Source: Syntrophales bacterium
GTDB lineage: Bacteria; Desulfobacterota; Syntrophia; Syntrophales; UBA4778
Reading direction: 5' to 3'
Length of the DNA stretch: 64,000 bases
Assembly (NCBI GenBank): GCA_963665615.2
Contig: CAXXQE010000006.1
Span: forward strand, 585,165-649,164
Shown here: in pieces, positions 8,264 through 40,322 of the stretch
How positions within the stretch are numbered: position 1 is the stretch's first letter
How the letters are laid out: every line of letters starts with the position of its first letter
The notes under the pieces: generated by a model
Told to the model about the DNA's origin: nothing
What the model saw: only the letters and a program-made list of their open reading frames with translations
Database searches by the model: none
Program-made: the position numbers and the translations under genes

Positions 8264-8280
8264 TCGCATTGCGTGTTCCG
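8264..8280 (-). promoter_or_regulatory. Weak sigma-54-like -24/-12 candidate upstream of the Fe-S/CooC operon
   Basis: The reverse strand reads CGGAACacgcaATGCG. GG and GC have the correct 12-nt register, but T1 and C4 of TGGCAC are missing. It lies about 95-110 nt upstream of the operon start. The palindrome GTTGA-ctt-TCAAC (8372-8384) lies about 95 nt further upstream. Confidence 0.25.
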
Positions 8281-8448
8281 TCATGATGTTGTAACCATCG
8301 CCCCGACGGGTGTCGCTTGATTTCGGCACCAATTGGAATGACAGCCTGAATCATATTAGCACTACAACGGTGTTGACTTTCAACGCCCACCCATTATGGG
8401 CTGGCTGGCCTGGCCAGCTTTCATCATTTGTTTTGTTATATATTTTAT

Positions 8449-8892
8449 TTACGTCGTTAATACTTTCCCCAGAGAAAAGCGGTTCCTTTTGATGCGCCAA
8501 CCCTTCTCAGTCTTGACGTAATCGATATTTTCATTTCCATAGGTCAAAACAACCTTATCGTTTACGACGTGCCCGACCAACATCAGCCATTCCACATAGG
8601 CGGTATTGCCACTCACATTGATCACCGGCGTCATAAACGCATGCATATAGAAATCTCCCATCTTGCATGCTTCATCGAGTATGCCTGCAATCTGGTCATG
8701 CCCCCTGGCTATCATGCCGGCAGCTTCGAATTCCCAGGTGCCATCTTCTACGTAAAATTCAGCAGCCTTTCGAGAATGCATTACTCTCCCGGCATATCCC
8801 CTATCTAGATAACTGGCGTAAATACTCTGTAGCTTTATGATTTCATTGATATCTTCTAATTTTTGTACTCGCGCCTCAAGTGTTTCAGTCAT
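8449..8892 (-). CDS. SnoaL-like / NTF2-fold family protein
   Basis: 147 aa. The N-terminal helix ...LEDINEIIKLQSIYASYLD and the overall cone-fold-like pattern are typical of SnoaL_4/NTF2-like proteins. This is a fold-level call only. Confidence 0.65.
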   Translation of the reverse strand: MTETLEARVQKLEDINEIIKLQSIYASYLDRGYAGRVMHSRKAAEFYVEDGTWEFEAAGMIARGHDQIAGILDEACKMGDFYMHAFMTPVINVSGNTAYVEWLMLVGHVVNDKVVLTYGNENIDYVKTEKGWRIKRNRFSLGKVLTT

Positions 8893-9030
8893 ATTCTTTA
8901 TCCTCGCTTTAATTGATGAACTAGAATTGATCTTATATTCTGGTCCGCATTAAAATATGCGTTTTCAGCTCACACGACAGCCAAACATAGTCTAGTTAGA
9001 TATTTTTATATTCGTAAAATCTTCACTTCT

Positions 9031-9975
9031 TTACATAAGCGGCATTAAGGCAAACAAGCCAAATCCCTTAAAGATGGAGATCAATGTAACCCCTAGTGCA
9101 ATGGCAAGCGCCGGTGGATCGATATGCGTATCAGCATGGACCAAAAAAACACCTGCCAGGAACTGACCCAGAAAAGCCGTAATGACACCAAAAAGGCCTC
9201 CCCAGAGCGCGCTCCCGCTGCCAATAGCGGCCAACGCCGCTACCAAGGTTATATGGTGGGTAACCGGAATCATGAGTCCGAACTGCAGGAAGACGAGGCT
9301 TACCAGCGAAAATCCGAAGCCGATAAATGCGCCGCCCCCCTTGGCCCCCATCATCATCGCAATGTAGCTTGAGACAAATCCGGCGGCGATGCCGATAAGC
9401 AGAAGTTCAAAAAAGCCTTGCTGCCAGGGGACCCAAACGCGATCATCTTTAAAGCTAAAGCGGCTCATTCCTTCAGGCACTTTCCCGAAAAGACCCGTCT
9501 TCCCGAAAACCCATCGAGCAATAAACGTGGTAATCGTTAACGCCATGGCCATATTATCTGTCCACGGCAGGCCCTTGATCTTGAACGGGATAAATGTCGC
9601 GAAGACCCACAGAATAGTCGCTGCCAGGACGCCAAAAAGGCCGCCAACGAGCAAGACATCCGGGCGCTTCAATCCCATTAGCGGTGTCGTGAGGTCGCGT
9701 CCTGACGCAATGTAACCCCTTCTGCCGGCATAAGCGGCCGCCGCGCAGGCGCCACCGTATATCATAAAGCCAGACCCATAACTGAGGCCTACATTGAACA
9801 GATATGCCGGGCTTCCCCCGGCAGCCATCGTTGCCGCGCCGGCGAACATAACGACGCCGACAACAGCAAAGACCGGAATGACTCCGAATGCAGTAGCAAA
9901 CATACCACCCGCAAAGGCGAGTAAAATATGGTGAATACTCATACCTCCAAGAGCTATCGACAGTTCATTGGCCAT
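9031..9975 (-). CDS. Polytopic membrane protein of unknown function
   Basis: ORF 9031..10002. The ATG at 9975 (MANELSIAL...) has AAGGAG 9 nt upstream. About 8-9 Gly/Ala-rich hydrophobic segments. No family recognised. Confidence 0.7.
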   Translation of the reverse strand: MANELSIALGGMSIHHILLAFAGGMFATAFGVIPVFAVVGVVMFAGAATMAAGGSPAYLFNVGLSYGSGFMIYGGACAAAAYAGRRGYIASGRDLTTPLMGLKRPDVLLVGGLFGVLAATILWVFATFIPFKIKGLPWTDNMAMALTITTFIARWVFGKTGLFGKVPEGMSRFSFKDDRVWVPWQQGFFELLLIGIAAGFVSSYIAMMMGAKGGGAFIGFGFSLVSLVFLQFGLMIPVTHHITLVAALAAIGSGSALWGGLFGVITAFLGQFLAGVFLVHADTHIDPPALAIALGVTLISIFKGFGLFALMPLM

Positions 9976-13905: not shown

Positions 13906-15303
13906 TTAACGCAGGCCTTTACCCGCCAAGTTATCCGGGGACCAGAAGGCATCCGACTGCTCCGGCATCGCCTTGACATAGGCGCCTTTGAAGCAGTTGT
14001 TGTAAGCATGTGCCAACACCTGGCTCGGCAAATTGTGGACGAAGAATGTATACGAATACGGGGTCAGGATGTCATAGCACTGGAAGAAGTTCATGAAGTT
14101 CGCATGGAACATCTTCCCCTGGGCATCGTAGTTATCATTAGACAAAATGGACCAGGAATCTTCGTCAACATAGAATGTTCTTCGCGGATAGATGTGCCGT
14201 TTGCCCGGTCTCAGTCTGGCTTCAACGATCCAGACTCTGTGCAGCTCCCAACGATAGAGATCCGGATTCGCATAACCTTTATGCTGGTACATATTGGCTT
14301 TCTTGTCACCCAGGTAGAAGCTCATCCTGTAGGTGCTATAAGGAACGTACATTTCTTTTTTGCCGAGAAGATGGAAGGTGTGGCGTATTCTGTCGCCATT
14401 GAACCCGAACGTCTCGTCGTAAGTCATGTTCCCGTCGCCGTCCGTGTTGGGGGTGTCAAATGCGACTTCCGGCGCCAGTTTGACACGCCGCTGACCGGGC
14501 AGATACAGCCAGTTCGTCGGACCAGTGATGCCCTCGCGAATGGTGTGTTTCCATCCATGCCGCCTTCGCCGGCCTTGCGGACCGGGCCGTCAAAGCGCCA
14601 CTGGATGAGCCAATGAATGCCTTGCTTGGGGGCGGTCTTGTTTTGATCCTTGTAATACCATGGCAGTTTCGTTCCAGATTCTGATCGGATCCGATGTGGC
14701 ATAAACACCACCGTTGGAATCCACGATTTTCTGTCATAGTTTTTTGTTGAATCGCAACACCCCGATAGCGAATCACGTGATTCCACATGACTTCGTCGCC
14801 ACTCTTCGGAATCGGAAATGGAATGCCGCCCGCTTCACCCTTAATGGCCATTGCCGTCAGAGTAAGTCTCCACCGACGTGGCGGTTTTCTTCGTAGCTTC
14901 CAGCACATAATCAGGATAAGCGACGGTTCGGTGTGTCGGATAAACATCCATCCGGAAAACCAGGGTATTGTTTAAACAGGGCCTTGGCGCCGTCTGTCAG
15001 TTTATCGGCGTACTGGGCCATGTTTCTGGCGGGTTAATAGAAAACAAAGGCTTCTCATTTTTAAAGGGATCGGTATAGAAACCGGAACCCGGGACATAGT
15101 CGGCAGGCGCCTTGGGTGAGGGCCGCCTGTATAGGGCGGGATCGTTCCCTCTTTATGTTCCGGCTGCCTCTGCACCAAACAGGGTTAGATTTTTCCCCAA
15201 CTGCGCCGCTTCTTCAGGACTTACCTTGGCAAGCACCAGCCCTGAGAAGCAGGTCATCATGGATGACTGCGGACAGCGCGATAATTTTCATGAATTTTGA
15301 CAT
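13906..15303 (-). pseudogene. DUF1329 (LolA-like outer-membrane lipoprotein-sorting family) gene disrupted by several frameshifts
   Basis: Family-typical segments are spread over all three reverse frames:
- Start MSKFMKIIALSAV (ATG 15303, GGAGG upstream), followed by an early stop.
- ...AGNKEGTIPPYTGG only after a frame change.
- GGIPFPIPKSGDEVMWNHVIRYRG (frame of ORF 14456..14947).
- LPWYYKDQNKTAPKQGIHWLIQWRFDGP (ORF 14424..14786).
- GITGPTNWLYLPGQRRVKLAPEVAFDTPNTDGDGNMTYDETFGF... to the stop (ORF 13906..14427). Confidence 0.75.
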
Positions 15304-15324
15304 TATATTTCTACCTCCTTCCTA

Positions 15325-16998
15325 CTAAAAGTTCGTTTTAAAGGTGAAACTGACCCAGTCGCGGTCATAGAGGTATGCATTCAGTCCACCTCTTGCGGCT
15401 GATATGCCGCCCGACGCATCCGTATCGTGATCGCCATAATAAGTATTGTACGACAGCGTAAAATAATACTTCTGCCTGACTTCCGCGCTCACGCCAATGC
15501 TTGCGCTCCCATTGCCTTCGGCATCGCCGCCGTTGAGCGCCGAGTTGCCGAACAGGCCGCGGCTAAAGCTCACGGGCATTGGACAAATTCACGGCCGGCC
15601 AGACATTGAACCAGGTCGGTGTAAATGAAATGGCGATCCCCCATGGCATCTACGTGTCGTCTTGTTAATGCGCCATGGGCCCGCGTCGTTACCCTGGTAA
15701 TAGGCCTCTCCATCGCTTACGCGCTGTACATGGGCATGACGTGAATTCCAGAATGCCCGTTGACGATTCCCAGAGAGTGCGGTGGGCCCGCCAATCTGGA
15801 AGAAGTTGAGGGTCGCCGTGTGAATGTCACCACGGGTACCCGCGGTCTCTCCCTTACCGGGACGGGTTCCTGGGAACGACTATAAGATCACAATTAAAAG
15901 GCTGGTTAGAACGGTAAGCGTATTCCAATCCGATACTGATGCCGCCAAGAGCAAAAGCCGGCGCTTACGCCATAGAGCTTGATATCGTCAGGATAAACAA
16001 AAAAGTATTGAAGGTTGGTCGTGTCAAGATAGATCTGGGGCAGTTGATCGGTGAAGTTACGGTAATAGAATCCCAACTTACCCGATATCGAGTCCAGAAA
16101 CTCCGGTCTCCAGTTAAGTGCGAAACCATAGTCATGCGTTCCATCCGGTTCAATATCACTCTCATGTCTAAAAATAGCGCCCGCCAGCAAAGACTCGCCA
16201 CCCTTGTGAAAAAAGTCAAGGCCTCCCATGTAGCTGCCGCCGTCAGGAACCCGGGCCGGCTGGAACTGGAGAAATTGCTGAAACTGAATACCTACACTGT
16301 TGCTAAGGGTTGCCTGCAAGGACAAAGCGGCTCGCGGCATGAAAAGTTCCTTGACTTCCGACCCAGGTATGGACAACGCCTTGGCGATATCGACGGGGAA
16401 CTGCCCATAAGACGATAGCGTTAATGAATCCTAAAAAGGACTCACCCCAGTACTGCGTGTGGCGCCCCAATTTAAAGTTCACCGGTACCGAGCCGATATC
16501 AACGGATCCGAATACAAACGCGTCAAGAATTTCTCCATAAGCCCCCCGCTCATAATTCTTAACACGCTGGCTAAGGCCAAGATCCTGTGTGCCTTGGTCA
16601 GTAAGGTGGTTCGAAGTCGCCAGGGAGGTGTTATCCATCGGATCCCGATAGCGTGCATCATACCAGCCCGAAGCACTGATCCTGAATCCCTGCTTTTCTT
16701 TGTAGACAAGATCGAACTCCGACAGGATGTCCAGTCGGTTCGTGACAATGCCCATACTGCGGCCAAAATTACGATCGCCGTCATCGTAATTCGGGCTCTT
16801 CAAGAGTGCGTCATCGGGACTGGCAACACGAATACCCAAATTGTACTTTAGTGTGTTGTCCCAGCGCATTTTAATATTTTCGTTATCCGTTTTAAGTTCC
16901 ATTGCCTGAGCCACGTTGCATATCCCGACAAGGAATACAAGCGCCGTCGCAATGAAGCCGAAGCACCACATTCTACGCTTTCTCATCGCATTTTCCAT
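15325..16998 (-). pseudogene. DUF1302 (outer-membrane beta-barrel family) gene disrupted by several frameshifts
   Basis: N-terminal piece with signal peptide MENAMRKRRMWCFGFIATALVFLVGICNVAQA and ...LRWDNTLKYNLGIR (ORF 16303..17046). Middle piece PGSEVKELFMP... (15906..16376). C-terminal piece ending ...DRDWVSFTFKTNF (15325..15579). The stretch 15580-15905 needs further frame changes. Confidence 0.75.
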
Positions 16999-17796: not shown

Positions 17797-17812
17797 AGCA
17801 CGTTGTATGCCA
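17797..17812 (-). promoter_or_regulatory. Sigma-54 (-24/-12) promoter candidate P4, pointing toward the DUF1302 module
   Basis: The reverse strand reads TGGCATacaacGTGCT, with GG and GC in exact consensus register. The palindrome TTGACAggTGTCAA lies 66-79 nt upstream. The first recognisable gene start (16998) is about 790 nt downstream. Confidence 0.45.
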
Positions 17813-17877: not shown

Positions 17878-17900
17878 TTGACAGGTGTCAATATATTTAC
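17878..17900. promoter_or_regulatory. Palindrome TTGACAggTGTCAA overlapping the 15-mer TGTCAATATATTTAC (candidate activator/operator site)
   Basis: Perfect 6-bp arms at 17878-17883 and 17886-17891. The 15-mer at 17886-17900 recurs (14/15) at 18148-18162. Confidence 0.4.
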
Positions 17901-18147
17901 CGTTATTAACACAATATTAAGCCCCCAAAAACTTAAGACACCAAATGCCAAAATATATTTTGTTGTTATTTCAGTATATTAGAAAAATAAATAAACTGGA
18001 TGCGCTCTTTTGTTTTTAAAAATGAGGATCAATACAGCTCTCCCATGGATAGTTATGATGCACAACATATTATAAATATTATATAAATTATTTAATAAAC
18101 GACTCAGGACAACTTTGAAGAGCACGACAAATCGCCACACTGACACA

Positions 18148-18226: not shown

Positions 18227-21200
18227 ATGGCGACTATCCGCGAATTTTTATCAACCTTTTCAGATGATGAAAAATCGATTTTTTTCAGCTTCCGAGGCTT
18301 TCCAAATTATTTTTCAGTGGATTGGTTTTCAGAATTCCCTATTTCGACATTGATTGCTGTCATATCCGAAATTGAAAAACAGCAATGGCTTTCGCCTCAG
18401 CCAGGGAAGCGGGGGCACTATTTATGGACTTCAAAATTCCCCCAGCAAGAATGGAGCGCACAAATATCGCCGGAGGAAATGTCTAGACTGCATCGCAACT
18501 CAGTCGACAGACTTTCGAAAATTCTTCCGAAAGATGATGATATTCGTTTGGCTTTAGCCAAACAATGTATTCTGGCGGGATTACAGGAAGACGATTTGGC
18601 TATTATCACGGATGCGGCCCTTATTGAGGAAAACAAGAATAGAATATCAGACGCTATCCATCTTTATGACACCATCCTGTCTTTTATAGAACAATTAGTC
18701 ATCCGTGACGATGATTTATCGGAGACGACATGGAATATTTTTATTGATTCGATTGAACGTCGGGCGTCTCTCTCACTTTTGCACCCCACGCTGAGAAAAG
18801 CGAAACACTTTCTGAAGATCGCGCTGGAGCATGCCTGCAAGCGCAACAATCAAAAGACCCGCGCCTATATCGAGTTGTTAATCGGACAAAATTATTGGAT
18901 GCATTTTCAGCACAATCGGGCCATTGAGCATTTCAACCGCGGCTTGGAGATCATCAACACCCTTGATGACCGTGAACTTTACAAAAGAGCGCTTAAGATT
19001 CAGGGATTGATTCTCGCCGCCAAGGGCCACTACTTTGAAGCAATTAAGAGGTACGAAAACTCGCTGGGCGAATTGGAATCGCCTGAGAACAATGATTTTT
19101 TTCTCGTTGCGGCCCTAAATTTGTCTCTCTGCTACACGGAGGTCGGAATGCCTCAGAGGGGCCTCGGGATTTCAGAATCAATTCAAAAAAAATGTTCTAG
19201 AAATGACAACCTGCCCTTTATTAGCCTTCGCGCACACGACAGCAGGAATTATTTTTCTACATATTAGAAATCTCAAAGAAAGCAGATCAAATTTTGAAAA
19301 GGCCGCTGAACTTGCCAAATCCGCGCAACTCCCCATGATGGAAGGCCCTGGCGGGGATCGGCCTTGCCAATGTATGCTACTTTGAAGATGATAAGGACCG
19401 TGCCGCCGAGCATTTCAAATCTCTCTGGAAGATCTCAGAATCCGACTGGTATTGTTTTCTGAATTTCAGTCCTCTTTTAGAGGTGTTCTTTGCATTAAGA
19501 CCTAAATTTATCAATGATGGCATAGAGCATTTTTTTGATGTGCTTCGCACCATCAACCCCGAGGAAGTAGATCCTTTTGTTTATTCGGCCACTCAGCGCC
19601 TTTTACTTTTATCATCAGAAAATGAAAGCCCGCTCCAAGACAAAATTAATACCTTGTTAGCGTTAGAAGAAATGATAGAGGCGATGGGCGAGAGCATAGA
19701 AGCGTCCTTAATCAGGGCAGAACTGGCCAGACTATTCATGGTGGAGCGCGATATGCCGAAGGCGCAAGAATATGCATTAAAATCCTGGAAATTTCTCAAC
19801 TACAAAGCCAAGGCTTGTTTTCCTCTCGATTTGTTTCATTTGCTTCCTAAAGACTGCAAGGAATCCGAAAACACGATACTTGAACTGGTCATGACCATGG
19901 GTCGAGCGCTCGGTTATCAGGAAAATCCCGAAGAGACGCTTGTAAATATGATTTCTTTGATCGCCCAAATCGGCGGGGCAGAAAAAACGGGGCTTTTTGT
20001 AAAAGAAAAGAATTCATCAAATCTCAGACTGATTGCCTCCAGAAATCTTTTTCAGGAGGATGTAGAGGATGAGAGTTTTCATGAGAGCATGGAACTGATA
20101 AAATCTGCGGCCAATAACGCCGACAGCCTCCAATTTCTGCATTATGAGTTCGTCGGGAAAAAACGGATACTCCTTTCACCCATTATGCTGTCGCGAAAAA
20201 TTATTGGCGTACTTTATAAGGAGGGTCGTTTTCTCAACGTGGATATTGACATGGAAGACGATAACGAAAAATATATACCCATTCTCAACTCTCAAATTGC
20301 GCTCTCGATACAGCACCTTTTAGCGACTGCCGAAATCATGCAGTTGAACAAGAAATTACTTTCCGAAAATTTATACTATCTGGAGACGATGGACGAAATT
20401 CGCCCGTTCCGGGATATCGTCGGGACCAGCAAAGGGATTATGGAGGTACAGGCGCTTATCCGAAAAGTCGCCCCGACCCAATCAACGGTTTTAGTGCATG
20501 GAGAAACAGGGGTCGGAAAGGAGCTTGTTGCTCGAGCGATCCACCGAGAGAGTCCGAGAAAGGATGGGCCTTTCATTCGTGTTAATTGCGCCGCCCTTCC
20601 GGATACATTAATCGACAGTGAGCTCTTCGGACATGAAAAAGGGGCATTTACAGGCGCCACGCACACCAAGGCAGGTCGCTTTGAGCTCGCGAATAATGGA
20701 ACGATTTTTCTTGATGAGATTTCCGAACTTCCTCCCTCAACGCAAGCAAGATTGCTTAGGATTCTGCAAGAAAAGGAATTCCAGCGAGTAGGCGGCACCA
20801 AAACCCTGAGTTCGAATTTCCGGTTAGTCGCAGCGACGAACAAGGATTTATCCGATGCAGTCGAAAAGGGAAATTTTAGGGCGGATCTCTATTATCGATT
20901 GAATGTCTTTCCGATCAATGTTCCACCTCTCAGAGAGAGAATAGCGGATATCCCTCTACTCGTAGATCACTTTGTCAAATTCCATTGTACCCAAAATTCG
21001 AAAGAGTATCTCGGTATCTCCAATGCAGATATGGAAAATTTCAAGGCCTATTCCTGGCCGGGCAATATTCGTGAACTTTCGAATACAATCGAACTTGCCG
21101 TCATTATGGGAGGGGCAAAGCTTACGTTCCCTAAATTTAAACAGTATGATGATCGTGTTAAGCCAAGTCTCAACGAAAAATTTAATCTCAAAGATGGTGA

Positions 21201-21369
21201 ACGAGCGCGAATTTTGGAGGCTCTTGAAAAAAGTGGCGGAAAAATAGGCGGCAATGATGGGGCGGCTGCACTTGTAGGCCTAAATCGAACAACCCTCATC
21301 CATCGCATGAAAAAGCTGGGAATCAAAATCGAAAATCGGCAGACAATCTCCATTCAGAAGAGTGCCTAA
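18227..21369 (+). pseudogene. Sigma-54-dependent transcriptional activator (TPR-like N-terminal region, GAF-like domain, AAA+ domain, HTH) interrupted by two frameshifts
   Basis: ORFs 18227..19267, 19203..19385 and 19483..21369 lie in three different frames. Joined, they are collinear with the intact paralog 21522..24662 (MATIREFLSTFSDDEKSIFFSF...SVDWFS versus MNAVEDFFSGISEHDKEVFLSL...SIDWFS). The first shift is at or near the A8 run at 19185-19192; the second is near 19335-19350. The C-terminal part has GETGVGKE, GAFTGA and a C-terminal HTH. Confidence 0.75.
20668..20807. repeat. 140-bp block, 139/140 identical to the reverse complement of 22060-22199 (left copy)
   Basis: Checked base by base. 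There is a single mismatch (gagctc versus gaactc). Flanking paralogous sequence is only about 70 percent identical. Confidence 0.9.
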
Positions 21370-21521: not shown

Positions 21522-24500
21522 TTACGAAACAACTTTTTTTACCGAGATATTGTGCCTTTTAATACGAGACGCGAGCGTTGTTCGATTTAGGCCCAAAAGC
21601 GAAGCGGCACCGCTCGGTCCGCCAATTGTGCCATTCGTCAGCCTTAATGCCTTTAATATTTGTGCCTTCTCAAATTCCTTGGAATCCATAAACTCATTAT
21701 GGATGTTGTCGACTTTTTTTCTGTTTACAATATCACTAAATGAAATTTTGTCTTTTCCAAGAATTACGGATCGTTCGATAATGTTGGAAAGCTCCCGAAT
21801 ATTGCCCGGCCAGTTATAGTTGACAAGCTTATCCATCTCAGACTCTGGAATACCATCGAAGTGCTTGTTGAATTGAGAGCAATGTTGATGAAAGAAATGA
21901 ATTGCAAGCGGGGGAATGTCTTCTTTTCTCTCTCGCAAAGGCGGAACGAATATTGGGAAAATGTTAAGTCTGTAGAAAAGATCCGCCCTGAATTTTCCTT
22001 TCGCAACTTCTCTTTCCAGATCCTTGTTTGTTGCTGCAATCAGCCGGAAATCAGAAGAGAGGGTTTTGGTGCCGCCTACTCGCTGGAATTCCTTTTCTTG
22101 CAGAATCCTAAGCAATCTTGCTTGCGTTGAGGGAGGAAGTTCGGAAATCTCATCAAGAAAAATCGTTCCATTATTCGCGAGTTCAAAGCGACCTGCCTTT
22201 GTTTTTATTGCGCCGGTAAAAGCGCCCTTTTCATGACCAAACAATTCACTATCAATCAGGGTATCGGGCAATGCAGCACAATTTACTCGGATAAAGGGCT
22301 TGTCGCATCTTGGACTGTTATTGTGAATGGCTCTGGCAATGAGTTCTTTCCCAACCCCTGTTTCTCCATGGATTAGAACAGTAGACTGTGTCGAAGCAAC
22401 TTTTTGAATAAGCACTTGAACCTGTAAGATTGCACCGCTGATTCCGATAATGTTGCCGAAGGGGCGTAATTCCTTCTGTTCATCTTGGTAATACTGATTT
22501 TCTCGAATCAAATTTTTATTCAACTGCAGGATTTCATCATATGCCTGCGCCCGATCAACGGAAACGGCGATTTGTGTTCCCAATGCAGACAAAAGTTTAT
22601 GCTTTTGAGTGATGTTGTCAAAGGGAAGAAAACGGCTATCCAGATAAAGAACCCCCGTAACTCTTTTATTGAGAACGAGCGGCGTAATGCAAATATGAAG
22701 GGCATCATCGGAATCGTTAAACGAAATTTTCTTTTCGATTACACAACTATCTCGGCTTTCAGCAGTTAATTTTATTTTTTCTGAAACAGCCTTAAACCAT
22801 CGTTCATTCATATGTTCATACGTAAAGTTCCTGGAGGCTGTAATCTGCAATTCGGAAGAAAATTTATCCTTGATAAAAAGAGCTGTACGTTCAGCGCCCA
22901 TCATTCTTGATATTGACGTAATAATACTGCAAAGAAGCTGCTCCAGGTTTTCCTGATTCGATAGTGCTTCTCCAATTTCGATGATGAGTTCAGATAACTT
23001 GTTTTCATCCGTATTTTCCTCCTCATGAATAAAGTGTCTGAGATTGTTTGGAAAAAGATTTTTACAGATGGGCTTTAAAAACTTCCAAGCTGATTGCGCA
23101 TACAACTCCGCCGCTTCCCAATCATTTACTTGCAATGACATTGAAGCAATATCAGTTCTAAGTTTTGCCAATTCTATCGTTTCACCAATTTGACAAATGG
23201 AGGTTTCGATAGCCTTGAATTCTTCCAGCTTATCCTTGACCTGCAGATTCGGTTCTAAATATTTCAGGTGTTGCAACTTAATGAGGCCATGCAAAAAAGG
23301 ATTCAGCTGTTCTGCTCGAAGTCGATCCACATGATTGAGAAATAACTCGAGTTCTTTTGTATAAACATTTTGCGCATACAAAATATATCCAACATCAAAA
23401 ACAGGATATAGATTAAAAAAATGCAACCACTTTGATTTATGGATTTTGGCGAGGATTCTAAAGTGGTCGGCGGCGGCGGTATAATTTCCCTTCAAGCATT
23501 CGATTTTGGCCAGCCCAAGACTTGCAATCACCTCCTGCCTAGGAAGTCTTTCTTGAACCGAAAGGTTTAGTCCCTTTTCGAAATAGGTGCGGCTATTCTC
23601 CAGTTGCATGATTTCAAGGAGAATGCTTCCCATGGTCACCAGGGCATAGCTGGCCATAGGCCAATGTTTTTGTTTCTCTGTCTTGCTTAATATCGTTTCT
23701 GCTATTCCCAAACCACGTTGCGGCATCCCGATCTCAGCATATGATTGGGCAAGGTGAAGAGCCGTCACATAGGTGAGATCATCAGCTTCGAAATCCTCCG
23801 TTTTACCCAGAGATTCTTCATAGATTCGAATGGATTCATGAACCTGCCCTTTGAGCCAGAGTGAAAGACCTTGCAGTTGAAACCCCTTTCGATAGAGCAC
23901 CTGATCGTTAATCGTCTGGATCATTGCCCAGCCCCCATCGAAGTGGTCTGTTGAGGCTTTGTATTCGAGCTCCGTCCAGTAGTAAAGCCCCATGCAAAGA
24001 TGGAGAAACGCCTCATGTGCCTTCTCTTCGAGTTCCGCCGCAATAACCAGTCCTTTTGACAGCCAACGATAAATTTTTTCTTTATTAGGATCAAAAATGG
24101 TCGAATACGTTACGACCCGGGCTAATGCTTTTAAAAAAGTATAGAGCATTTCTTTGGGCGGTTTTGTCTCGGTTGTCTCCAGATAATTGTCAATAAACGA
24201 TAAGAGCGTATGAAGCAGGTTAATTGCCGATGAAATCCTATGCTGTTTTCTTTCAGTAACAGCCGCTCGGTAAATAATATTGATGTGAGATGGTTCCAGG
24301 CCGGCGGACAGACATTGGTGAGCGATGCTGAGAATCCCTTGATCATTCATGGGCAGATGTTCTTGAAGCATAGATACGGAATTTCGATAATAGGGCATCA
24401 TTATTTCTGGAGGAATTGCTTTCAAAAATGCGGAACGAGGAAAGTCTTTTGCCCATCGATAAAAACCGGGGTCATCCGAAATAGATGCGACCCATTTCTT

Positions 24501-24662
24501 TTGACTGAGAGCGCTAACCATCGTAAACAATTGTGACAAGAGAAAATTTGGATTACCGGAAAACCAATCAATTGAAAAATATTCTTTGAAAGCCAGGAGA
24601 CTTAAAAAGACTTCTTTATCATGTTCACTTATGCCTGAAAAAAAATCCTCAACGGCATTCAT
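21522..24662 (-). CDS. Sigma-54-dependent transcriptional activator, 1046 aa (TPR-like N-terminal region, GAF-like domain, AAA+ domain, Fis-type HTH)
   Basis: GETGVGKE Walker A, ELFGHEKGAFTGA sigma-54 contact motif, and ...GGPSGAASLLGLNRTTLASRIKRH HTH. Divergent from the 25168 operon and its -24/-12 promoter. Confidence 0.9.
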   Translation of the reverse strand: MNAVEDFFSGISEHDKEVFLSLLAFKEYFSIDWFSGNPNFLLSQLFTMVSALSQKKWVASISDDPGFYRWAKDFPRSAFLKAIPPEIMMPYYRNSVSMLQEHLPMNDQGILSIAHQCLSAGLEPSHINIIYRAAVTERKQHRISSAINLLHTLLSFIDNYLETTETKPPKEMLYTFLKALARVVTYSTIFDPNKEKIYRWLSKGLVIAAELEEKAHEAFLHLCMGLYYWTELEYKASTDHFDGGWAMIQTINDQVLYRKGFQLQGLSLWLKGQVHESIRIYEESLGKTEDFEADDLTYVTALHLAQSYAEIGMPQRGLGIAETILSKTEKQKHWPMASYALVTMGSILLEIMQLENSRTYFEKGLNLSVQERLPRQEVIASLGLAKIECLKGNYTAAADHFRILAKIHKSKWLHFFNLYPVFDVGYILYAQNVYTKELELFLNHVDRLRAEQLNPFLHGLIKLQHLKYLEPNLQVKDKLEEFKAIETSICQIGETIELAKLRTDIASMSLQVNDWEAAELYAQSAWKFLKPICKNLFPNNLRHFIHEEENTDENKLSELIIEIGEALSNQENLEQLLCSIITSISRMMGAERTALFIKDKFSSELQITASRNFTYEHMNERWFKAVSEKIKLTAESRDSCVIEKKISFNDSDDALHICITPLVLNKRVTGVLYLDSRFLPFDNITQKHKLLSALGTQIAVSVDRAQAYDEILQLNKNLIRENQYYQDEQKELRPFGNIIGISGAILQVQVLIQKVASTQSTVLIHGETGVGKELIARAIHNNSPRCDKPFIRVNCAALPDTLIDSELFGHEKGAFTGAIKTKAGRFELANNGTIFLDEISELPPSTQARLLRILQEKEFQRVGGTKTLSSDFRLIAATNKDLEREVAKGKFRADLFYRLNIFPIFVPPLRERKEDIPPLAIHFFHQHCSQFNKHFDGIPESEMDKLVNYNWPGNIRELSNIIERSVILGKDKISFSDIVNRKKVDNIHNEFMDSKEFEKAQILKALRLTNGTIGGPSGAASLLGLNRTTLASRIKRHNISVKKVVS
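22060..22199. repeat. 140-bp block (right copy, inverted) matching 20668-20807
   Basis: See the left copy. It covers the AAA+ segment ...KAGRFELANNGTIFLDEISELPPSTQARLLRILQEKEFQRVGGTKT in both genes. Confidence 0.9.
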
Positions 24663-24711: not shown

Positions 24712-24729
24712 TGTCAACGAAAGTTGATA
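24712..24729. promoter_or_regulatory. Inverted repeat TGTCAAC-gaaa-GTTGATA (candidate upstream activator site for P1)
   Basis: 6/7 complementary arms, about 100-117 bp upstream of the -24 element at 24829. Confidence 0.3.
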
Positions 24730-24828
24730 ATTCGTCACACGCCGAGTTATCGGCACACATGAAGAGCCGCAATGCGCCTTGTGGCAATATAAGTAATTGT
24801 TTTATTTAGTATTATTATAAATTACGCA

Positions 24829-24844
24829 TGGCATAAGATATGCA
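24829..24844 (+). promoter_or_regulatory. Sigma-54 (-24/-12) promoter candidate P1 for the 25168..30135 operon
   Basis: TGGCATaagatATGCA, with GG and GC in exact consensus register. It is divergent from the intact activator gene. The first start codon is about 325 nt downstream. Confidence 0.55.
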
Positions 24845-30757: not shown

Positions 30758-30797
30758 GTCTCAGTTCCCTTTCGTTTCTCTCACTACGGACCAGGCC

Positions 30798-31664: not shown

Positions 31665-31720
31665 CTTTCCTGTTCTCCTTATTCATTGCTAATCGCCTAT
31701 GCAGATTGAAAAGAAACTCT

Positions 31721-31736
31721 TCCAAGTCTTGTGCCA
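31721..31736 (-). promoter_or_regulatory. Weak internal sigma-54-like element upstream of paralog B
   Basis: The reverse strand reads TGGCACaagacTTGGA. The -24 element is perfect, but -12 reads GG instead of GC. It lies 57-72 nt upstream of the ATG at 31664. Confidence 0.25.
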
Positions 31737-31873
31737 AACAGCGGCGCTTTTTTTGTTCTGTTAACACCTGTTCACAAGAAACATGCGCCGATTTGCTACC
31801 ATGCTTCTCACATAGTTGTCTCTTCGCAGGTAACTATACGGTGGGGCCTTATATGCGTGAAACAGAAACCATC

Positions 31874-33112: not shown

Positions 33113-33211
33113 AAATGCCTCCAAAATAACAATCTGATCGCAATAAAATGGAATTCAGGGGGATGGTTCATCTATCTAATTGTTAAATTACACATATCCA
33201 TCCATAACTGA

Positions 33212-33227
33212 TGCACACTACATGCCA
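33212..33227 (-). promoter_or_regulatory. Sigma-54 (-24/-12) promoter candidate P2 for the ADH - Fe-S paralog B - EthD unit
   Basis: The reverse strand reads TGGCATgtagtGTGCA in exact register, about 100-115 nt upstream of the ATG at 33112. Confidence 0.55.
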
Positions 33228-33258
33228 TCATCAAAACATCATAAAGACAAAGAACTTA

Positions 33259-33297
33259 TGTCAATTTTAGTCTCTATATATAGAATCTTGTTTGACA
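33259..33297. promoter_or_regulatory. Near-symmetric composite site TGTCAA-N8-TCTATATATAGA-N7-TTGACA upstream of P2
   Basis: Half-sites at 33259-33264 and 33292-33297 flank the perfect 12-bp palindrome at 33273-33284. Further TGACA repeats follow at 33310-33330. Confidence 0.4.
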
Positions 33298-33623
33298 GGT
33301 GTTGAATGAATGACATTTTTTGACAATTTTAAAAGGCGAACTTCTCTTTAAAATTATTATTGGAAATCAATTGATGGGCATAGTGTGAGACACCTTGGTA
33401 AAAAAGTTTGAAAATATTTATGAATGGAAATAAAAGTGCCCCGACTGAACTTAGAGTTTACAATTAGTTGATTTTTGCATTTGGAAGCCGATGGGAGGTG
33501 TAGTTTTTGCATATATAAATGTCTCTTTAACTCGAAGAAATCGACGTAAGATATTTTTAGTAAATTTCGATGTATCGAGAATTGCGCACAATCTCGTAAG
33601 AGTTTCTTTGATTCAAAACATAA

Positions 33624-33653
33624 TTGACAGAAAAAAACGTGGGAATGTATAAT
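33624..33653 (+). promoter_or_regulatory. Near-consensus sigma-70 promoter (TTGACA-N18-TATAAT)
   Basis: TTGACA at 33624-33629 and TATAAT at 33648-33653, in an AT-rich region without long ORFs of convincing composition. Confidence 0.5.
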
Positions 33654-33782
33654 ATAAAAATAGGGGAAGTCATGCTGACGCCTACAGCGTGCGACTTCCA
33701 AACCAGAGGGTTGCGGGATTACAACACTTAAAAGTATAAAGGTTCATTGACATACTAGCCCATATAACAAGGAGAAGGAGAA

Positions 33783-33908
33783 ATGAAGTCTGACAACATT
33801 TTTAGAAGAGTATTTTTAGTAGTAACCTTGGGTTTGCTCTTTTCCTGTGCATCTATCATAACAGGCATAATGAAACTCTTTTGCAAGCAGCAGGCAGCCC
33901 CGAATTAA
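33783..33908 (+). CDS. Possible 41-aa lipoprotein-like micro-ORF
   Basis: AAGGAGAAGGAG lies directly upstream of the ATG. MKSDNIFRRVFLVVTLGLLFSCAS... has a basic N-region, a hydrophobic core and a lipobox-like LFSC. It is too short for the ORF track and I know of no homology. Confidence 0.35.
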   Translation: MKSDNIFRRVFLVVTLGLLFSCASIITGIMKLFCKQQAAPN

Positions 33909-34093
33909 CAGTTGCTCACCGAGGTGTGTCAAATTACTTTGTCTTAAATTACGCCAATAATCATAAGAGAGGCATTATTATCTCCTATCTGAGATATGGT
34001 GTCTTTCCAAGCATGTCTGTCGGATATAATTGGAGCTAATGCGTTATATCAAATCAAAATTAAATCTCCCGAACAAGCTTTGATATCCTATTT

Positions 34094-34136
34094 ATGACAA
34101 AGAGGCACGCACGATTCCGTGGTGCCTCTTTGTCAT
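34094..34136. terminator. Strong hairpin (15-bp perfect stem) downstream of the Fe-S relic / FAD-oxidoreductase unit
   Basis: ATGACAAAGAGGCAC (34094-34108) pairs with GTGCCTCTTTGTCAT (34122-34136). There is no clear U-tract on either strand. Confidence 0.45.
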
Positions 34137-34180
34137 AATGAAACTACCTCTGTGGTTCCTGCCCCAAGATAGTTAAAAAA

Positions 34181-34394
34181 TCATCCATCCTGATAGACGC
34201 GTCCGCAGCTGTCTCTTACAGGCAGTGCCGATACCCCTTTGATCCATTGGACGAGTTGCCGGCATAAAGCTTCCTCATTCTCAATATTCATGATAGCAGC
34301 CTGATTCGGACATGCCCCATACATTACATTGAGCACATCCAGAACATGGTCGCCCGTGAGTTGCTTTCCCGTTTACAATCGTATCAACGACGCC
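34181..34394 (-). pseudogene. 5'-truncated, frameshifted relic of a fifth Cys-rich Fe-S paralog (C-terminal about 70 codons only)
   Basis: The reverse strand reads GVVDTIVNGKATHGRPCSGCAQCNV... After a 1-nt frame change it continues ACPNQAAIMNIENEEALCRQLVQWIKGVSALPV. This is collinear with paralog C (...VVDGKAKHGPSCSGCGKCVEVCPNKAVTMNIVDEEVLYQQLVKWIKGVSELPVKNS). Stops TGA TAG lie immediately upstream (34395-34400). Confidence 0.65.
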
Positions 34395-34434
34395 CTATCA
34401 CGATGGTGAGACGTAATTCACGTCACGAGCAAAT

Positions 34435-35835
34435 CTATTTTCCTAAATCCTTCAGGATCAAGTCCGCGCACTTCATGCCGCTCAATGCAGCGCCGTTGAT
34501 CGCCAACCCGCGCCCCAGATAGGTGTCCCCTGCAAAGAACAGATTCGGAATACCCGGCGCCTGCAGGGCCGGCTTGAAATTGCCCACCAGACCCGGCTGA
34601 CGCGCCAGACCGTCGCAACCGTCTACGTAATACGGCAATCGCCACTCCAGCTTCTCCTCCAGACCCGGGAACATCTCTTTCAAGTCTTCCCACATCAGCT
34701 TCAGCAGACGCTCTCTTTCAAACTTGTCAGACGCCTCCGCATGCTCCACAACGATGTCCGTGTGGAACAGCTGCTTGCCCGCCGGCGCCACCGCATCGGT
34801 AAAGTTCGATACGGGGCAACCCTGGAAGGGAAAGCCGCTGTGCTTCAACTTCAACGCACTGTAAAAAACCTTCTTGTTCGGATCCACCAACGGTTCTTTC
34901 GTACCGAACAGGAATCCGATCAGACCGGTGACTTCATGCTGGATGTCCTCTATGCGCTTGATCCACCACCTGGGCAGCGGACTCGTCTTCGGATTGAAAT
35001 CAAGAACCTTGGAAAGTTTGTAGATGGGAAGGGCGCAAACCACGCGATCTGCGGCGATGAACTCTGTCTCGTAAATGCGGTATTCTTCCTGGTAGATGTG
35101 CTTGGCCGAGGGCACGCGAACGCCGATGGCTCTTTTGTCCTGAACGACGACTTCCTGAACGTCGCAGTTGAGGCGGATCTCGCCGCCGTTTTCCTTGATG
35201 ACTTCGACTAAACCGCGGGTCAAGCCTTCCATCCCGTCAATCGGGTAGCTGGCCGCCAACGCCTGACGGATCTTGAGAAGATTGTGCTTCGCGATCCACA
35301 ACACCTCCCCCGCCGCCATGTCGATGGCATTGGGTATGGTCGTCATGATCATCCCCAGATCGGTCAAAAGCTCCCGCACCGCCTGCTGCGGAACATTCTC
35401 AACCATCCACTCTTCCAGCGACCGGTTGTCCCACTTCTCGATCTCGGCGTCGCTCAACGTCGCGATCGCCTGCAGCAGATCCCGGAAGGCGATCTTGTCG
35501 TCCTTGGTCATGGGAACCAGTTCCGCGATGTTGATGAACTGCTCCCCCGTCCATATGTCCACCGTCTCGCTAAACGGACCCCACGCTACCTGCTTCCCAA
35601 CACGCTCGTTCAACTCCGTACACGAGGCCTTGTCCCCCAGCTCCACCACATGCAAACCGATATCCGCTCGCCAGCCCGGACCCGGATAACCTTCATAACT
35701 CATCGTCCGGCCACCAATCTTCGGAAACCGGTCTAACACCAATACCTTCTGCTTCCCCTCTTTCGCTAATATCGCCCCGACACCCAACCCCGCTATCCCT
35801 GCACCAACAATAATCACATCGTATCTATCTTCCAC
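34435..35835 (-). CDS. FAD/NAD(P)-binding oxidoreductase (phytoene-desaturase/amine-oxidase-like family)
   Basis: ORF 34435..35871. The preferred start is GTG at 35835 (VEDRYDVIIVGAGIAGLG...) with GAAGGAAGGA upstream. It has a GxGxxG dinucleotide fold followed by VLVLDRFPKIGGR. Confidence 0.85.
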   Translation of the reverse strand: MEDRYDVIIVGAGIAGLGVGAILAKEGKQKVLVLDRFPKIGGRTMSYEGYPGPGWRADIGLHVVELGDKASCTELNERVGKQVAWGPFSETVDIWTGEQFINIAELVPMTKDDKIAFRDLLQAIATLSDAEIEKWDNRSLEEWMVENVPQQAVRELLTDLGMIMTTIPNAIDMAAGEVLWIAKHNLLKIRQALAASYPIDGMEGLTRGLVEVIKENGGEIRLNCDVQEVVVQDKRAIGVRVPSAKHIYQEEYRIYETEFIAADRVVCALPIYKLSKVLDFNPKTSPLPRWWIKRIEDIQHEVTGLIGFLFGTKEPLVDPNKKVFYSALKLKHSGFPFQGCPVSNFTDAVAPAGKQLFHTDIVVEHAEASDKFERERLLKLMWEDLKEMFPGLEEKLEWRLPYYVDGCDGLARQPGLVGNFKPALQAPGIPNLFFAGDTYLGRGLAINGAALSGMKCADLILKDLGK

Positions 35836-35893
35836 GAGTCGTCCTTCCTTCTTTTTTAATTTTACAGACAATTATCTAAAATGTTTTAAGAAA

Positions 35894-35909
35894 AGCAAAA
35901 CATGTACCA
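35894..35909 (-). promoter_or_regulatory. Sigma-54 (-24/-12) promoter candidate P3 for the FAD oxidoreductase gene
   Basis: The reverse strand reads TGGTACatgttTTGCT in exact register. The inverted repeat TGTTAATAT-N8-ATATTGACA (35984-36009) lies about 75-100 nt upstream. Confidence 0.55.
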
Positions 35910-36202
35910 CTGCTAATTTTTACATAATATCGATACAATACGGGGGTTCCTCTATCGTCAACCCACACCGGAATATTAGCAACTGTTAATATATCAGCAA
36001 ATATTGACACATCATTTGAACAGGATCACATTTTAACAAGGCCCACGGTTTTCAATGCCCAAGGCATGCATGGCTGCTAAAATGAATATGTCAATCAGCG
36101 GCCGGCGTCTGATTCGAATCCTTACTGCGCAGTGAACAGGTTTGGGTGAACCAAACCAGAACGCCTGCCCTGCGCGTTTTAGACGAACGTATCGAAATGT
36201 CC

Positions 36203-37904: not shown

Positions 37905-38756
37905 ATGTCGAATCGCTACATCCTCCTGCTCGTTTTTTTTCTTCTGTTCTGTTTCATGCCGCTCCGCGCGTCGGCCTTTACTCACGCTACGCCTGAATTT
38001 ACCGCCTTCGCATCGGAGCTCAAACAACACTTCGCCAAACTGGGATGGACCGATCTGCACCCGGAGCGCGTTGCCTGGTCTTATTACAGAAAAACGCAGC
38101 TCAAGCGGCCCCTCATCTTCTCCACCTTCGGGGAGGACGACAAAGACATCATCCTGCTGCTGGCAGGTGTGCACGGCGACGAAAGCCCTTCAGTTTACGT
38201 TATGTTCCGACTGGCCGAGTTTTTGAAAGACCATCCGGAGTTGTACCGAAACAAGAAGATCATCCTGGCCCCCCTGGTCAATCCAGACGGCTTTTTCAAG
38301 CCGACACAGACAAGAACCAATGCATCCGGGGTCGATATCAACCGTAACTTCCCGACCCGGGACTGGCACCCGGGGAAACGAAACCGCTACTACCCGGGCC
38401 CCACGGCTAGCAGCGAAAACGAGACCAAATTTCAGATCGCCCTGCTCAACCACTACCGGCCATCGCGGATCATCAGCGTTCATTCGCCGCTGGGATGTTA
38501 CGACTACGACGGTCCCTGTTCGAACATCGACGCCATGATGGTCTGGCTTAAAAAAATGAGCAAGGACAGCGGCCTGCCCCTAAGGCGCTACAAGGTCTTC
38601 CCGGGGTCTCTCGGAAATTATGCTGGAATGGAACGCAAGATCCATACCCTGACGATTGAATTGCCGTCGTCGGCGCCCAATCAGGGACAGATCTCTTTCG
38701 ATCGTCTGCGTAAAACGTTTATCAGCATGACGGAGTTGGCCTTCTTATCAAAATGA
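37905..38756 (+). CDS. Secreted M14-family zinc carboxypeptidase / MpaA-like murein peptide amidase
   Basis: Signal peptide MSNRYILLLVFFLLFCFMPLRASA. Zinc and catalytic motifs GVHGDES, DINRNFP, SVHSP, and ...LTIELP. Confidence 0.8.
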   Translation: MSNRYILLLVFFLLFCFMPLRASAFTHATPEFTAFASELKQHFAKLGWTDLHPERVAWSYYRKTQLKRPLIFSTFGEDDKDIILLLAGVHGDESPSVYVMFRLAEFLKDHPELYRNKKIILAPLVNPDGFFKPTQTRTNASGVDINRNFPTRDWHPGKRNRYYPGPTASSENETKFQIALLNHYRPSRIISVHSPLGCYDYDGPCSNIDAMMVWLKKMSKDSGLPLRRYKVFPGSLGNYAGMERKIHTLTIELPSSAPNQGQISFDRLRKTFISMTELAFLSK

Positions 38757-40069
38757 AAAAATCGGATCCGAAAAGAATCGACGCCCCCCCGCCAACACCA
38801 GCAATGCAAGGCCGAACTACCAAGGGCACAGCTCGTCCTTCGGCGACGCTGGCAACGCGTTATCGGCTCATCATGGACCATGCCCGCGATATCATCCTCT
38901 TCGTCCGCAGACGCGACGGAGGGATCTTGGAGGCCAATGCAGCCGCCCTCAAGACCTACGGTTACACGCGCGATGAAATCCTGCGTCTGACCATTTTCGA
39001 CCTTCGGATCCCCAAAGAACGCCGGCAGGTCAGCGTCCAGATGGAAAAGGCGGATATAGCCCCCAGCGGCATCCTCTTCGAAACCGTGCATATCCGCAAG
39101 GACGGAACTACTTTCCCGGTTGAGGTCAGTTCCCGAAGCATCCATATCGGCAGCGAGGCGATCCTGTTGAGCATCGTTCGCGATATTGCCGACCGGAAAA
39201 AGACGGAAGAGAAGATGCGCTCCAGCGAAGAAACCCTGCGTGCCCTGGTAAACGCAACTGCAGAGGCCTTTTTTCTCATGAACACCAACGGCGTCCTACT
39301 GCAAGTCAATGAAGCCATGACCAGATGGTTGGGCTTTGAACACCCGGAAGAAATCATCGGGAAGAACCATTACGATCTGGTTCCCGCAATATACGCCGCA
39401 CAGAGCCGGGCACAGGTTGACAAGGTCCTTCAGACCGGCAAGCCCCTGCGATTCGAAGACAGGCGCGGAGGACGCCATATCAATCACGTTCTCTACCCAC
39501 TTTTCGACGATGCCGGTCGGGTGGACCGCATCGCAGCGTTCGGGTCGGACATCACAGAATACCGACGGCTGGAAGAGAAGCTGCACCTGCAGGCCCTGAC
39601 CGATCAGTTGACGGGCCTGTACAACCGGCGGGGATTTTACTTTCTTGCCGAACAGCAGCTGAAGGTCGCCAAACGCACGGGCGGCAAGATCGTCCTGTTT
39701 TATATCGATCTGGACGGCATGAAGGAGATCAACGATACCCTCGGTCATGCCGAAGGAGACAAAGCACTGATCGCAGCAGCCCGCATCCTCCGAGAGACCT
39801 TCCGGGAAGCCGACACCATCGCCCGACTGGGAGGGGACGAATTCGCCGTGCTGGCGGTGAATATCAAGGCCGAATTCCGCCGGACGTTGATTGATCGTCT
39901 CTATGCCCGTATCAACACCTATAACGCGGCGAGGACTAGACGTAAGTTTAAACTGTCGATGAGCCTCGGCATTGCTGAATTCCAGAAAGGCAACGCCGCC
40001 TCGCTTCAGGACCTCATCTCCAGGGCAGACAAGTTAATGTATTTACAGAAGAAGAAAAAGAAGGGATAG
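38753..40069 (+). CDS. PAS/PAS-GGDEF diguanylate cyclase
   Basis: The ATGA overlaps the preceding stop. Two PAS-like segments, then LTGLYNRRGF, an RLGGDEFAV active site and an RxxD-like I-site context. Confidence 0.9.
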   Translation: MKKSDPKRIDAPPPTPAMQGRTTKGTARPSATLATRYRLIMDHARDIILFVRRRDGGILEANAAALKTYGYTRDEILRLTIFDLRIPKERRQVSVQMEKADIAPSGILFETVHIRKDGTTFPVEVSSRSIHIGSEAILLSIVRDIADRKKTEEKMRSSEETLRALVNATAEAFFLMNTNGVLLQVNEAMTRWLGFEHPEEIIGKNHYDLVPAIYAAQSRAQVDKVLQTGKPLRFEDRRGGRHINHVLYPLFDDAGRVDRIAAFGSDITEYRRLEEKLHLQALTDQLTGLYNRRGFYFLAEQQLKVAKRTGGKIVLFYIDLDGMKEINDTLGHAEGDKALIAAARILRETFREADTIARLGGDEFAVLAVNIKAEFRRTLIDRLYARINTYNAARTRRKFKLSMSLGIAEFQKGNAASLQDLISRADKLMYLQKKKKKG

Positions 40070-40306
40070 AACTCGCCGAAACAGTTTCAATCTCCAGCTT
40101 CTTTATGAAAGAATTGTCAGCTTTCTTTACAAAAATTTACAAAACCGATCGGAATTCCTACTATTCTGTTATTATTAAGTTTTAGTAAATTGATGCGTTT
40201 ATTTTTTTACCTTCTCTTTGTAATGACCCGCAAATGCTTTACACATTTTACCCTTTTTCCCAATGGCATCTCATAAAAACAATACAAATACAGATAGATA
40301 GAAGCA

Positions 40307-40322
40307 TGGCATGGCATATGCT
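40307..40322 (+). promoter_or_regulatory. Sigma-54 (-24/-12) promoter candidate P6 upstream of the PEP-CTERM protein gene
   Basis: TGGCATggcatATGCT in exact register, about 270 nt upstream of the ATG at 40595. Confidence 0.45.

Follow-up and report, generated by a model that had tools for sequence, protein, structure and literature searches.

Do the sigma-54-type promoter elements found along one stretch of a Syntrophales genome belong together, as a locally controlled set with its own enhancers and activators, or do they merely lie near each other? The stretch considered here (the window, 64,000 nucleotides, contig C6:585165-649164) comes from a Syntrophales bacterium whose 3.04 Mb genome is assembled in 8 contigs with 53% GC. 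An earlier note on this DNA had listed five such promoters (P1-P4 and P6) and two weaker candidates, and had read the region as one co-regulated island with two giant activator paralogs, here called A and B, in its middle. We find that four promoters of the GC-poor segment at ~17-36 kb (44% GC across 17047-34434 vs 51-54% on the flanks, from the composition of the window), P1-P4, probably form a local sigma-54/enhancer regulon. Because these four promoters have enhancer words in common, they are best read as a local set under the control of the adjacent activators. A single co-regulated island is not supported: P6 falls outside the set, and the four promoters that share enhancer words are divided between two enhancer layouts, P1/P3 and P2/P4.

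The promoter elements were examined by a strict pattern, TGGYAY-N6-TGC, with the identical two words at N4, N5, N7, and N8 spacing as controls; a match was called gene-facing when it was intergenic with a gene start at most 400 bp ahead, on a gene map of the genome that is crude. All five elements that had been placed in exact -24/-12 register were recovered (Table 1). Each of them is intergenic, is directed at a gene on the same strand, and has GG and GC exactly 10 bp apart in a TGGCAC-N5-TTGC-like context. The window contains 6 strict matches, compared with 1.67 expected. In the whole genome we counted 93 matches, of which 53 are coding, 32 are gene-facing intergenic, and 8 are other intergenic, whereas the spacing controls gave 45-62, 3-4, and 6-8 matches in the same three classes. 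The motif is therefore in 9-fold excess over the controls in gene-facing intergenic DNA, where about one strict match in nine is estimated to be false, and shows no excess in coding DNA. Since the excess appears only at N6 and only in gene-facing intergenic DNA, it is specific to the sigma-54 spacing and to such DNA. This outcome addresses the refuting condition set in the note, that such matches might be equally dense inside coding regions. Furthermore, the interval 17797-40322, which makes up 0.74% of the genome, holds 5 of the 40 intergenic matches vs 0.30 expected (Poisson P ~1.5e-5). On these grounds P1-P4 and P6 are predicted to be genuine sigma-54-type promoters. Scores were taken from a position weight matrix (PWM) built from GG-N10-GC-anchored sites outside the window (64 training sites, GC invariant), which replaced an earlier PWM that had inherited fixed columns from its seed pattern. 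If nothing but the PWM score is considered, no element except P3 and P4 is safe; the score bin of P3 contains ~4% false positives.

What sets P1-P4 apart is found upstream of the elements. In the four regions of 195 bp preceding them, TGTCAA/TTGACA occurs 8 times vs 0.74 expected from the intergenic rate (P ~1e-6 before multiple testing). Besides one A-rich word, it is the sole hexamer present upstream of all four promoters, and the upstream region of P6 has zero copies of it. The hexamer is combined with a TGT-N10-ACA-like dyad in two ways. In layout I, seen at P1 and P3, TGTCAA is followed after N4-6 by the dyad; in layout II, seen at P2 and P4, the order is dyad, N2, TGTCAA, and the block ends 65-66 bp before the TGG. 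The four inverted repeats that had been reported 65-120 bp upstream are all present, except that the repeat of P2 lies 32-70 bp upstream. The enhancer of P4 contains in addition a 14-bp palindrome, TTGACAGGTGTCAA. Each pair has wording of its own: in the whole genome, TGTCAA-N7-TGATA is limited to P1 and P3, and T[TC][GA]ACACCTGTCAA is limited to P2 and P4. The more general pattern GT-N10-ACA-N2-TGTCAA has 5 copies in the genome, all intergenic, compared with 1, 0, and 0 for the N1, N3, and N4 controls. Three of the five copies (P2, P4, and one on contig C4) have a sigma-54 site 65-67 bp downstream, and the C4 copy counts as an independent case, since no promoter other than P2 and P4 was used to define the pattern. 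Finally, a dyad consensus derived exclusively from other genomes, TGTCGATATATTAACA, has 5 matches with at most 3 mismatches in the window vs 0.38 expected. Among these matches are the enhancer of P3 (2 mismatches), that of P4 (17886-17901), and a second dyad at 18148-18163, 65-80 bp before the start of activator A. A search for the IHF consensus WATCAR-N4-TTR between enhancer and promoter found none.

The C4 copy belongs to the strongest sigma-54 site of the genome, TGGCACATATATTGCT (C4:46583-46700, minus strand; 23.6 bits), which has the enhancer TGTCAA-TAT-TGTCCGAATATAAACA-TT-TGTCAA 67 bp upstream. The ~960 bp downstream of this site contain no open reading frame (ORF), and the site is directed at the end of a beta-oxidation-type operon that runs toward it. 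Possible interpretations are an orphan promoter, the promoter of a non-coding RNA, or the relic of a rearrangement.

The same arrangement is met in other Syntrophales. Homologs of the activators are present in many Syntrophales genomes and metagenome contigs, with 37-55% identity in the N-terminal part and 53-68% for the metagenome contigs. At 13 loci encoding homologous TPR-GAF-AAA+-HTH proteins of ~1,045 aa, a divergent TGGYAY-N6-TGC lies ~170-240 bp from the activator start; the distance from P1 to the start of activator B is 167 bp. Among the 19 distinct other-genome loci with enough flank, 6 have no strict match (L039, L040, and L043-L046, from the search with activator A). When ten intergenic regions beside activator homologs were aligned, just two conserved blocks emerged, the enhancer and the -24/-12 element, and the rest was unalignable. 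The enhancer block consists of GTCAA, 4-7 nt, and then TGTCGATATAnTAACA, a TGT-N10-ACA dyad, and the P1 enhancer falls within it. For instance, the locus of the closest homolog (68%) has GTCAACGAATGTTGAAAAATCGTCA in place of GTCAACGAAAGTTGATAATTCGTCA of P1, with ~22 of 25 bases matching. At the locus of the closest non-self relative of activator A (55%), the order is dyad and then TGTCAA. The operons beside the homologous activators vary (acyl-CoA dehydrogenase, Fe-S/pyridine-nucleotide oxidoreductase, thiolase), and the best activator homologs (68% and 53%) adjoin operons other than those of the window. The conserved unit is the predicted regulatory module, not the target operon.

Activators A and B have the domains that such a role would require: a TPR/MalT-like region, GAF, the sigma-54 AAA+ domain (PF00158 Sigma54_activat, E 1.8e-70 for B and 5.3e-72 for A), and HTH_8, with AAA_lid_14 in B. 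The GAFTGA loop and the Walker A motif (GETGVGKE) are present in both. An AAA+ domain with GAFTGA, a Fis-type HTH, and a conserved predicted enhancer block upstream of the promoter identify them as putative enhancer-binding proteins. In its N-terminal part activator A is 35% identical to B and 57% identical to the giant activator at C6:403123, while in the AAA+ region A and B share a tract with 139 of 140 positions identical (20668-20807 vs 22060-22199). The two genes are indeed giant paralogs, as had been proposed, but the one at 18227-21369 is broken by two frameshifts. The genome encodes ~32 sigma-54 activators, ~11 of which are giant (~1,040-1,060 aa), and three of the giants are frameshifted: activator A, C6:97316-100394, and C6:343652-346757. 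Over 952 residues, the last of these shares 94% identity with C1:359768. A literature search for giant TPR-GAF activators in Syntrophales yielded no paper.

In the mechanism that we propose, RNA polymerase with sigma-54 would be held as a closed complex on each TGGCAT-N5-xTGC element, and a giant activator would bind the composite enhancer, TGTCAA plus the TGT-N10-ACA-like dyad, 65-120 bp upstream. Upon sensing its effector the activator would oligomerise, loop over the AT-rich spacer, and open the promoter with ATP. The two layouts may correspond to the two paralogs. We infer that activator B would serve P1, from which it is divergent, and probably P3, as both have TGTCAA before the dyad, and that activator A would serve P4, from which it is likewise divergent, and probably P2, as both have dyad-N2-TGTCAA 65-66 bp from the TGG. 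In both A and B the recognition helix starts with NRTTL, which distinguishes the two from the other paralogs. This similarity makes cross-activation or mixed oligomers plausible. Assigning the sites to A or B by HTH sequence was tried and rejected, the helices being too alike. Binding of the activators to the enhancers, and activity of the regulon in this strain, are predictions from the DNA.

Table 1. Promoter elements, upstream boxes, and activator genes in the window (positions are those of the window).
Feature	Position	Strand	Sequence	Remarks
P1 sigma-54 element	24829..24844	+	TGGCATAAGATATGCA	13.8 bits; predicted start ~24855
P2 sigma-54 element	33212..33227	-	TGGCATGTAGTGTGCA	12.8 bits; predicted start ~33202
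P3 sigma-54 element	35894..35909	-	TGGTACATGTTTTGCT	17.5 bits; predicted start ~35884
P4 sigma-54 element	17797..17812	-	TGGCATACAACGTGCT	14.2 bits; predicted start ~17787
P6 sigma-54 element	40307..40322	+	TGGCATGGCATATGCT	13.0 bits; predicted start ~40332; 274 bp ahead of PEP-CTERM gene
P1 enhancer, layout I (predicted)	24712..24739	+	TGTCAA-CGAAAG-TTGATAATTCGTCACA	-117 from TGG; 50 bp upstream of activator B start codon
P2 enhancer, composite (predicted)	33292..33325	-	TGTCAA-AAAA-TGTCATTCATTCAACA-CC-TGTCAA	layout II part ends 65 bp before TGG
P3 enhancer, layout I (predicted)	35984..36009	-	TGTCAA-TATT-TGCTGATATATTAACA	at -100
P4 enhancer, layout II (predicted)	17878..17901	-	GGTAAATATATTGACA-CC-TGTCAA	ends 66 bp before TGG
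TTTACA box, candidate PrsR site (motif 1 of Haft et al.)	40238..40243	+	TTTACA	-69 of P6
Activator B	21522..24662	-		intact, 1,046 aa
Activator A	18227..21369	+		same architecture as B; two frameshifts, ~19190-19260 and ~19340-19370

The four promoters lead to different transcription units. P1 precedes an HGD-type operon (25168-30135) encoding two HGD-D subunits, a BcrAD/BadFG ATPase, a CdhC-like protein, and a CooC/MinD-type ATPase; the leader of this operon contains a perfect hairpin with 19-bp arms (25097-25135). P2 is followed, after a leader of ~90 nt, by a Zn-ADH gene (likely ATG 33112), by the gene of a Cys-rich 2x[4Fe-4S] protein (31664-30798), and by a 100-aa ORF (30757-30455). The label EthD given before is unconfirmed, the 100-aa ORF having no Pfam match. 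In two other Syntrophales genomes, homologs of the Zn-ADH (60% identity) without a promoter of their own are located directly 3′ of the gene of a glycyl-radical enzyme with the C-terminal motif RISGYNAYF (L020 2737-2850 and L021 2330-2520), a neighbour that hints at the pathway context of this Zn-ADH family.

P3 leads, with a leader of ~49 nt, to the gene of a FAD/amine-oxidase-type oxidoreductase, which ends at 34435 and whose likely start, GTG 35835, was deduced from a ribosome-binding site common to a second copy on contig C4. The two copies (window 34366-35851 and C4:46747-48232) are 99.5% identical over 1,486 bp; the identity begins 16 nt before the likely GTG, and the region upstream of the C4 copy is wholly different. 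P4 points toward a module recognised by Pfam as DUF1302-DUF1329-BNR-RND/MMPL. A paralogous module at C6:395357-406263, with its own giant activator, a sigma-54 site, and DUF1302-DUF1329-BNR-RND, supports P4 as the promoter of such a module; it is intact apart from its DUF1329 gene (C6:399104-400494), which is also split once. The intergenic region of the paralogous module has only the promoter core in common with P4 and contains no TGTCAA, and for this reason the module was rejected as support for a shared enhancer.

A number of observations weigh against a local regulon of P1-P4. The bin of 12-14 bits, to which P1, P2, and P6 belong, contains an estimated 36-70% false positives, depending on the null. 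The leader of P1 is ~313 nt long and structured, folding better than shuffled sequence (z = -3.4). P4 is ~750-800 nt from the next gene start, that of the frameshifted DUF1302 gene, and a hairpin is present downstream of it at 17679-17655. Rfam detected no known RNA in the whole window, the long leaders of P1 and P4 included. In the P4 module, DUF1302 and DUF1329 (13906-17046) are split across several frames. A peptide scan of genome contigs yielded no orthologous island, which limits the footprinting of P2-P4; the HGD homologs reach at most 40% identity, and those of the ADH, at 60%, sit in other operons. As for the enhancers, the layout patterns were formulated after the data had been seen, TGTCAA shows no genome-wide enrichment before sigma-54 sites (12 of 96 vs ~9 expected), and the TGTCAA of P1 could be instead the -35 box of the activator B gene's own sigma-70 promoter. 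Finally, activator A and rpoN are frameshifted as well, and in this strain some or all of the system may have ceased to work.

This last point bears on the rival that survives best, although we regard it as unlikely: the DNA architecture would be real, but sigma-54 transcription would be lost or fading and the promoters would be silent relics. The genome has a single rpoN, with the RpoN box and the context lptB-rpoN-hpf-ptsN (C7 ~111395-112865; L001 ~534-2004), and a 1-nt insertion in a CCCC run divides region I from the remainder. The ~140 N-terminal residues end with ...HLLWQLHLSPVHRS and a stop, and the remainder resumes one frame over as ...RFTDLEMCIGEQIIGNLD.... Either the assembly is wrong at this point or sigma-54 has really been lost. 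Decay would also fit the first two genes behind P4, which need several frameshifts to be read, and the fact that eleven long housekeeping genes, ~33 kb in total, are all intact. Moreover, self-comparison of the genome revealed ~20 frameshifted genes among those with paralogs, including 3 of the ~11 giant activators and both DUF1329 copies. On the other hand, ~60 well-formed promoters and ~29 intact activators persist, the HGD, ADH, and FAD units are intact, and some other frameshifts fall at homopolymers (A8 in activator A). An assembly indel rate of ~1 per 30 kb agrees with both data sets, with a ~5% chance of striking rpoN, and would account for the scattered frameshifts, some of which are at long homopolymers; it does not account for the at least 10 frameshifts within 5 kb around P4. 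Because activator A, the first two P4 genes, and the sole rpoN are all frameshifted, the regulon can be called no more than potentially active in this strain.

An improbable alternative is that TGTCAA/TTGACA has no part in activator binding and represents sigma-70 -35 hexamers or common AT-rich intergenic words, in which case other activators may serve the promoters. TTGACA is the sigma-70 -35 consensus; on the other strand of the P1 enhancer, TTGACA followed by N17 and TATGGT fits a sigma-70 promoter of the activator B gene. In the relatives, too, an invariant GTCAA is found ~55-70 bp before the activator start codon, and the lack of genome-wide enrichment points in the same direction. Nevertheless, the enrichment upstream of P1-P4 was computed against the intergenic rate, and P2 and P3 have no divergent gene that a -35 box could serve. 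Indeed, a fixed distance of 65-67 bp to the TGG at three promoters and a dyad conserved across genomes are traits of enhancers.

It is more improbable still that the five promoters and the two weak sites constitute a single island-wide regulon under both activators. The five sites do lie within 22.5 kb and have the TGGCAT form in common, but TGGCAT, and not TGGCAC, is simply the commonest -24 form of the genome. The weak sites score as background. The candidate at 8264..8280 (minus strand), CGGAAC-N5-ATGCG, remains below 7 bits, although its GG and GC are present, and the bin of 6-8 bits has no excess of intergenic sites (78 observed vs 98 expected). The candidate at 31721..31736 (minus strand), TGGCACAAGACTTGGA, has GG instead of GC at -12; its 10.3 bits were obtained with the first PWM, in which 321 of the 461 matches of at least 10 bits are coding. 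The view that nearly every accessory transcription unit has such a promoter was overstated: in the window scan, no convincing sigma-54 site was found for the two activator genes or for the methyltransferase, PCC, M14-peptidase/GGDEF, CorA, and Fe-S cassette units.

P6 also speaks against a single regulon. It precedes a single-gene PEP-CTERM unit (40595-41887; PF07589) with an intergenic region of 525 bp upstream, and further copies of TTTACA stand at -171 and -181 besides the one listed in Table 1. In this genome, a sigma-54 site scoring 13 bits or more precedes 6 of the 13 PEP-CTERM genes. TTTACA (at -69 to -77, or at -160) accompanies 5 of these 6 promoters, P6 included, vs 2 of 90 other intergenic candidates, and TTTACACATT at -69/-70 is common to P6 and another PEP-CTERM promoter. 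A 52%-identical homolog of the P6 gene, from another family, has TGGCACGTTTTGTGC ~95 bp upstream of its ATG. A dedicated PrsR is encoded at C8:782109-783440 (656 bits vs the TIGR02915 cut-off of 502.6), adjoining a PEP-CTERM gene. Haft et al. (2006) described for PEP-CTERM genes a sigma-54 motif and, ~63 nt upstream, a motif ending in TTTACA, under regulation by PrsR (PMC1569441). P6 resembles this PrsK/PrsR/PrsT regulon in its single-gene unit, its more than 200 nt of upstream DNA, the sigma-54 motif, the TTTACA box, and the presence of PrsR; it differs in that the regulon was described in Proteobacteria, that only the 6 of 13 genes mentioned have a sigma-54 site here, and that its leader of ~263 nt exceeds the published PEP-CTERM maximum of 221 (PMC1569441). 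Because it has no TGTCAA, has TTTACA at -69, and PrsR is encoded elsewhere in the genome, P6 appears to be a real promoter, but a predicted member of this known, separate surface-protein regulon and not of the island.

That the elements are chance matches without promoter function is very improbable: 53 strict matches do fall in coding regions and P1, P2, and P6 score just 12.8-13.8 bits, but the spacing controls, the clustering, the enhancers at fixed positions, and the recurrence in other genomes of arrangements like those at P1 and P6 argue against it.

The local regulon of P1-P4 can be compared with several known systems. Regulators of the NifA type, composed of GAF, AAA+, and HTH, bind TGT-N10-ACA ~100 bp upstream of a -24/-12 promoter. 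The island has the same form of dyad and a regulator with the same three domains; it differs in the AT-rich core of the dyad (TGTCGATATATTAACA), which is always accompanied by an extra TGTCAA on one or both sides, and in its targets, which are acyl-CoA or redox catabolic operons and not nif. The nearest analogue is the pair RedR1/RedR2 of anaerobic resorcinol degradation in Aromatoleum anaerobium, two paralogous GAF enhancer-binding proteins inside a catabolic cluster whose three sigma-54 promoters they drive, for which hetero-oligomers and cross-activation occur (PMC10084136). RedR1 and RedR2 hardly differ from each other, are of normal length, and have a GAF-PAS sensor (PMC10084136), whereas the activators of the island, known from sequence, have ~1,045 aa with a TPR/MalT-like region of ~550 aa, are 35% identical in the sensor part, and include one that is frameshifted. 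Catabolic sigma-54 regulators that adjoin their operons, such as the XylR/DmpR type and the co-localised enhancer-binding proteins of Desulfovibrio vulgaris (PMC4641369), have in common with the island an effector-sensing activator divergent from the sigma-54 promoter it controls and an enhancer in the common intergenic region. The sensor of the island activators is TPR plus GAF instead of V4R/XylR_N, and their family is expanded to ~11 copies in this 3-Mb genome.

The mechanism of the regulon, sigma-54 with a local enhancer-binding protein, is that of the textbooks and represents ordinary regulation in a little-studied group. It is possible, though doubtful, that beyond this we are dealing with an undescribed Syntrophales-wide system, in which activators of ~1,045 aa with TPR and GAF, ~11 per genome, are each wired to a different acyl-CoA or redox operon by a common enhancer grammar, the two paralogs of the island discriminating two layouts and the system maybe decaying in this strain. 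How catabolic operons are turned on and off is very poorly understood in Syntrophales, which break down fatty and aromatic acids at the thermodynamic limit. Should the proposed model of the P1-P4 regulon be right, the enhancer grammar together with the giant activators would reveal which operon each activator controls in uncultured genomes, and activator B could be a handle toward the substrate of the unusual operon with HGD-type, ACS-like, and CooC-type ATPase genes.

Outside the island, the window contains at 50746-50761 (plus strand) an intergenic AGGCACGACCATTGCT of 17.8 bits, 841 bp before a PPDK_N/PEP-synthase-like gene (51601-54270). A family-type dyad match at 51452-51467 lies between this site and the gene.

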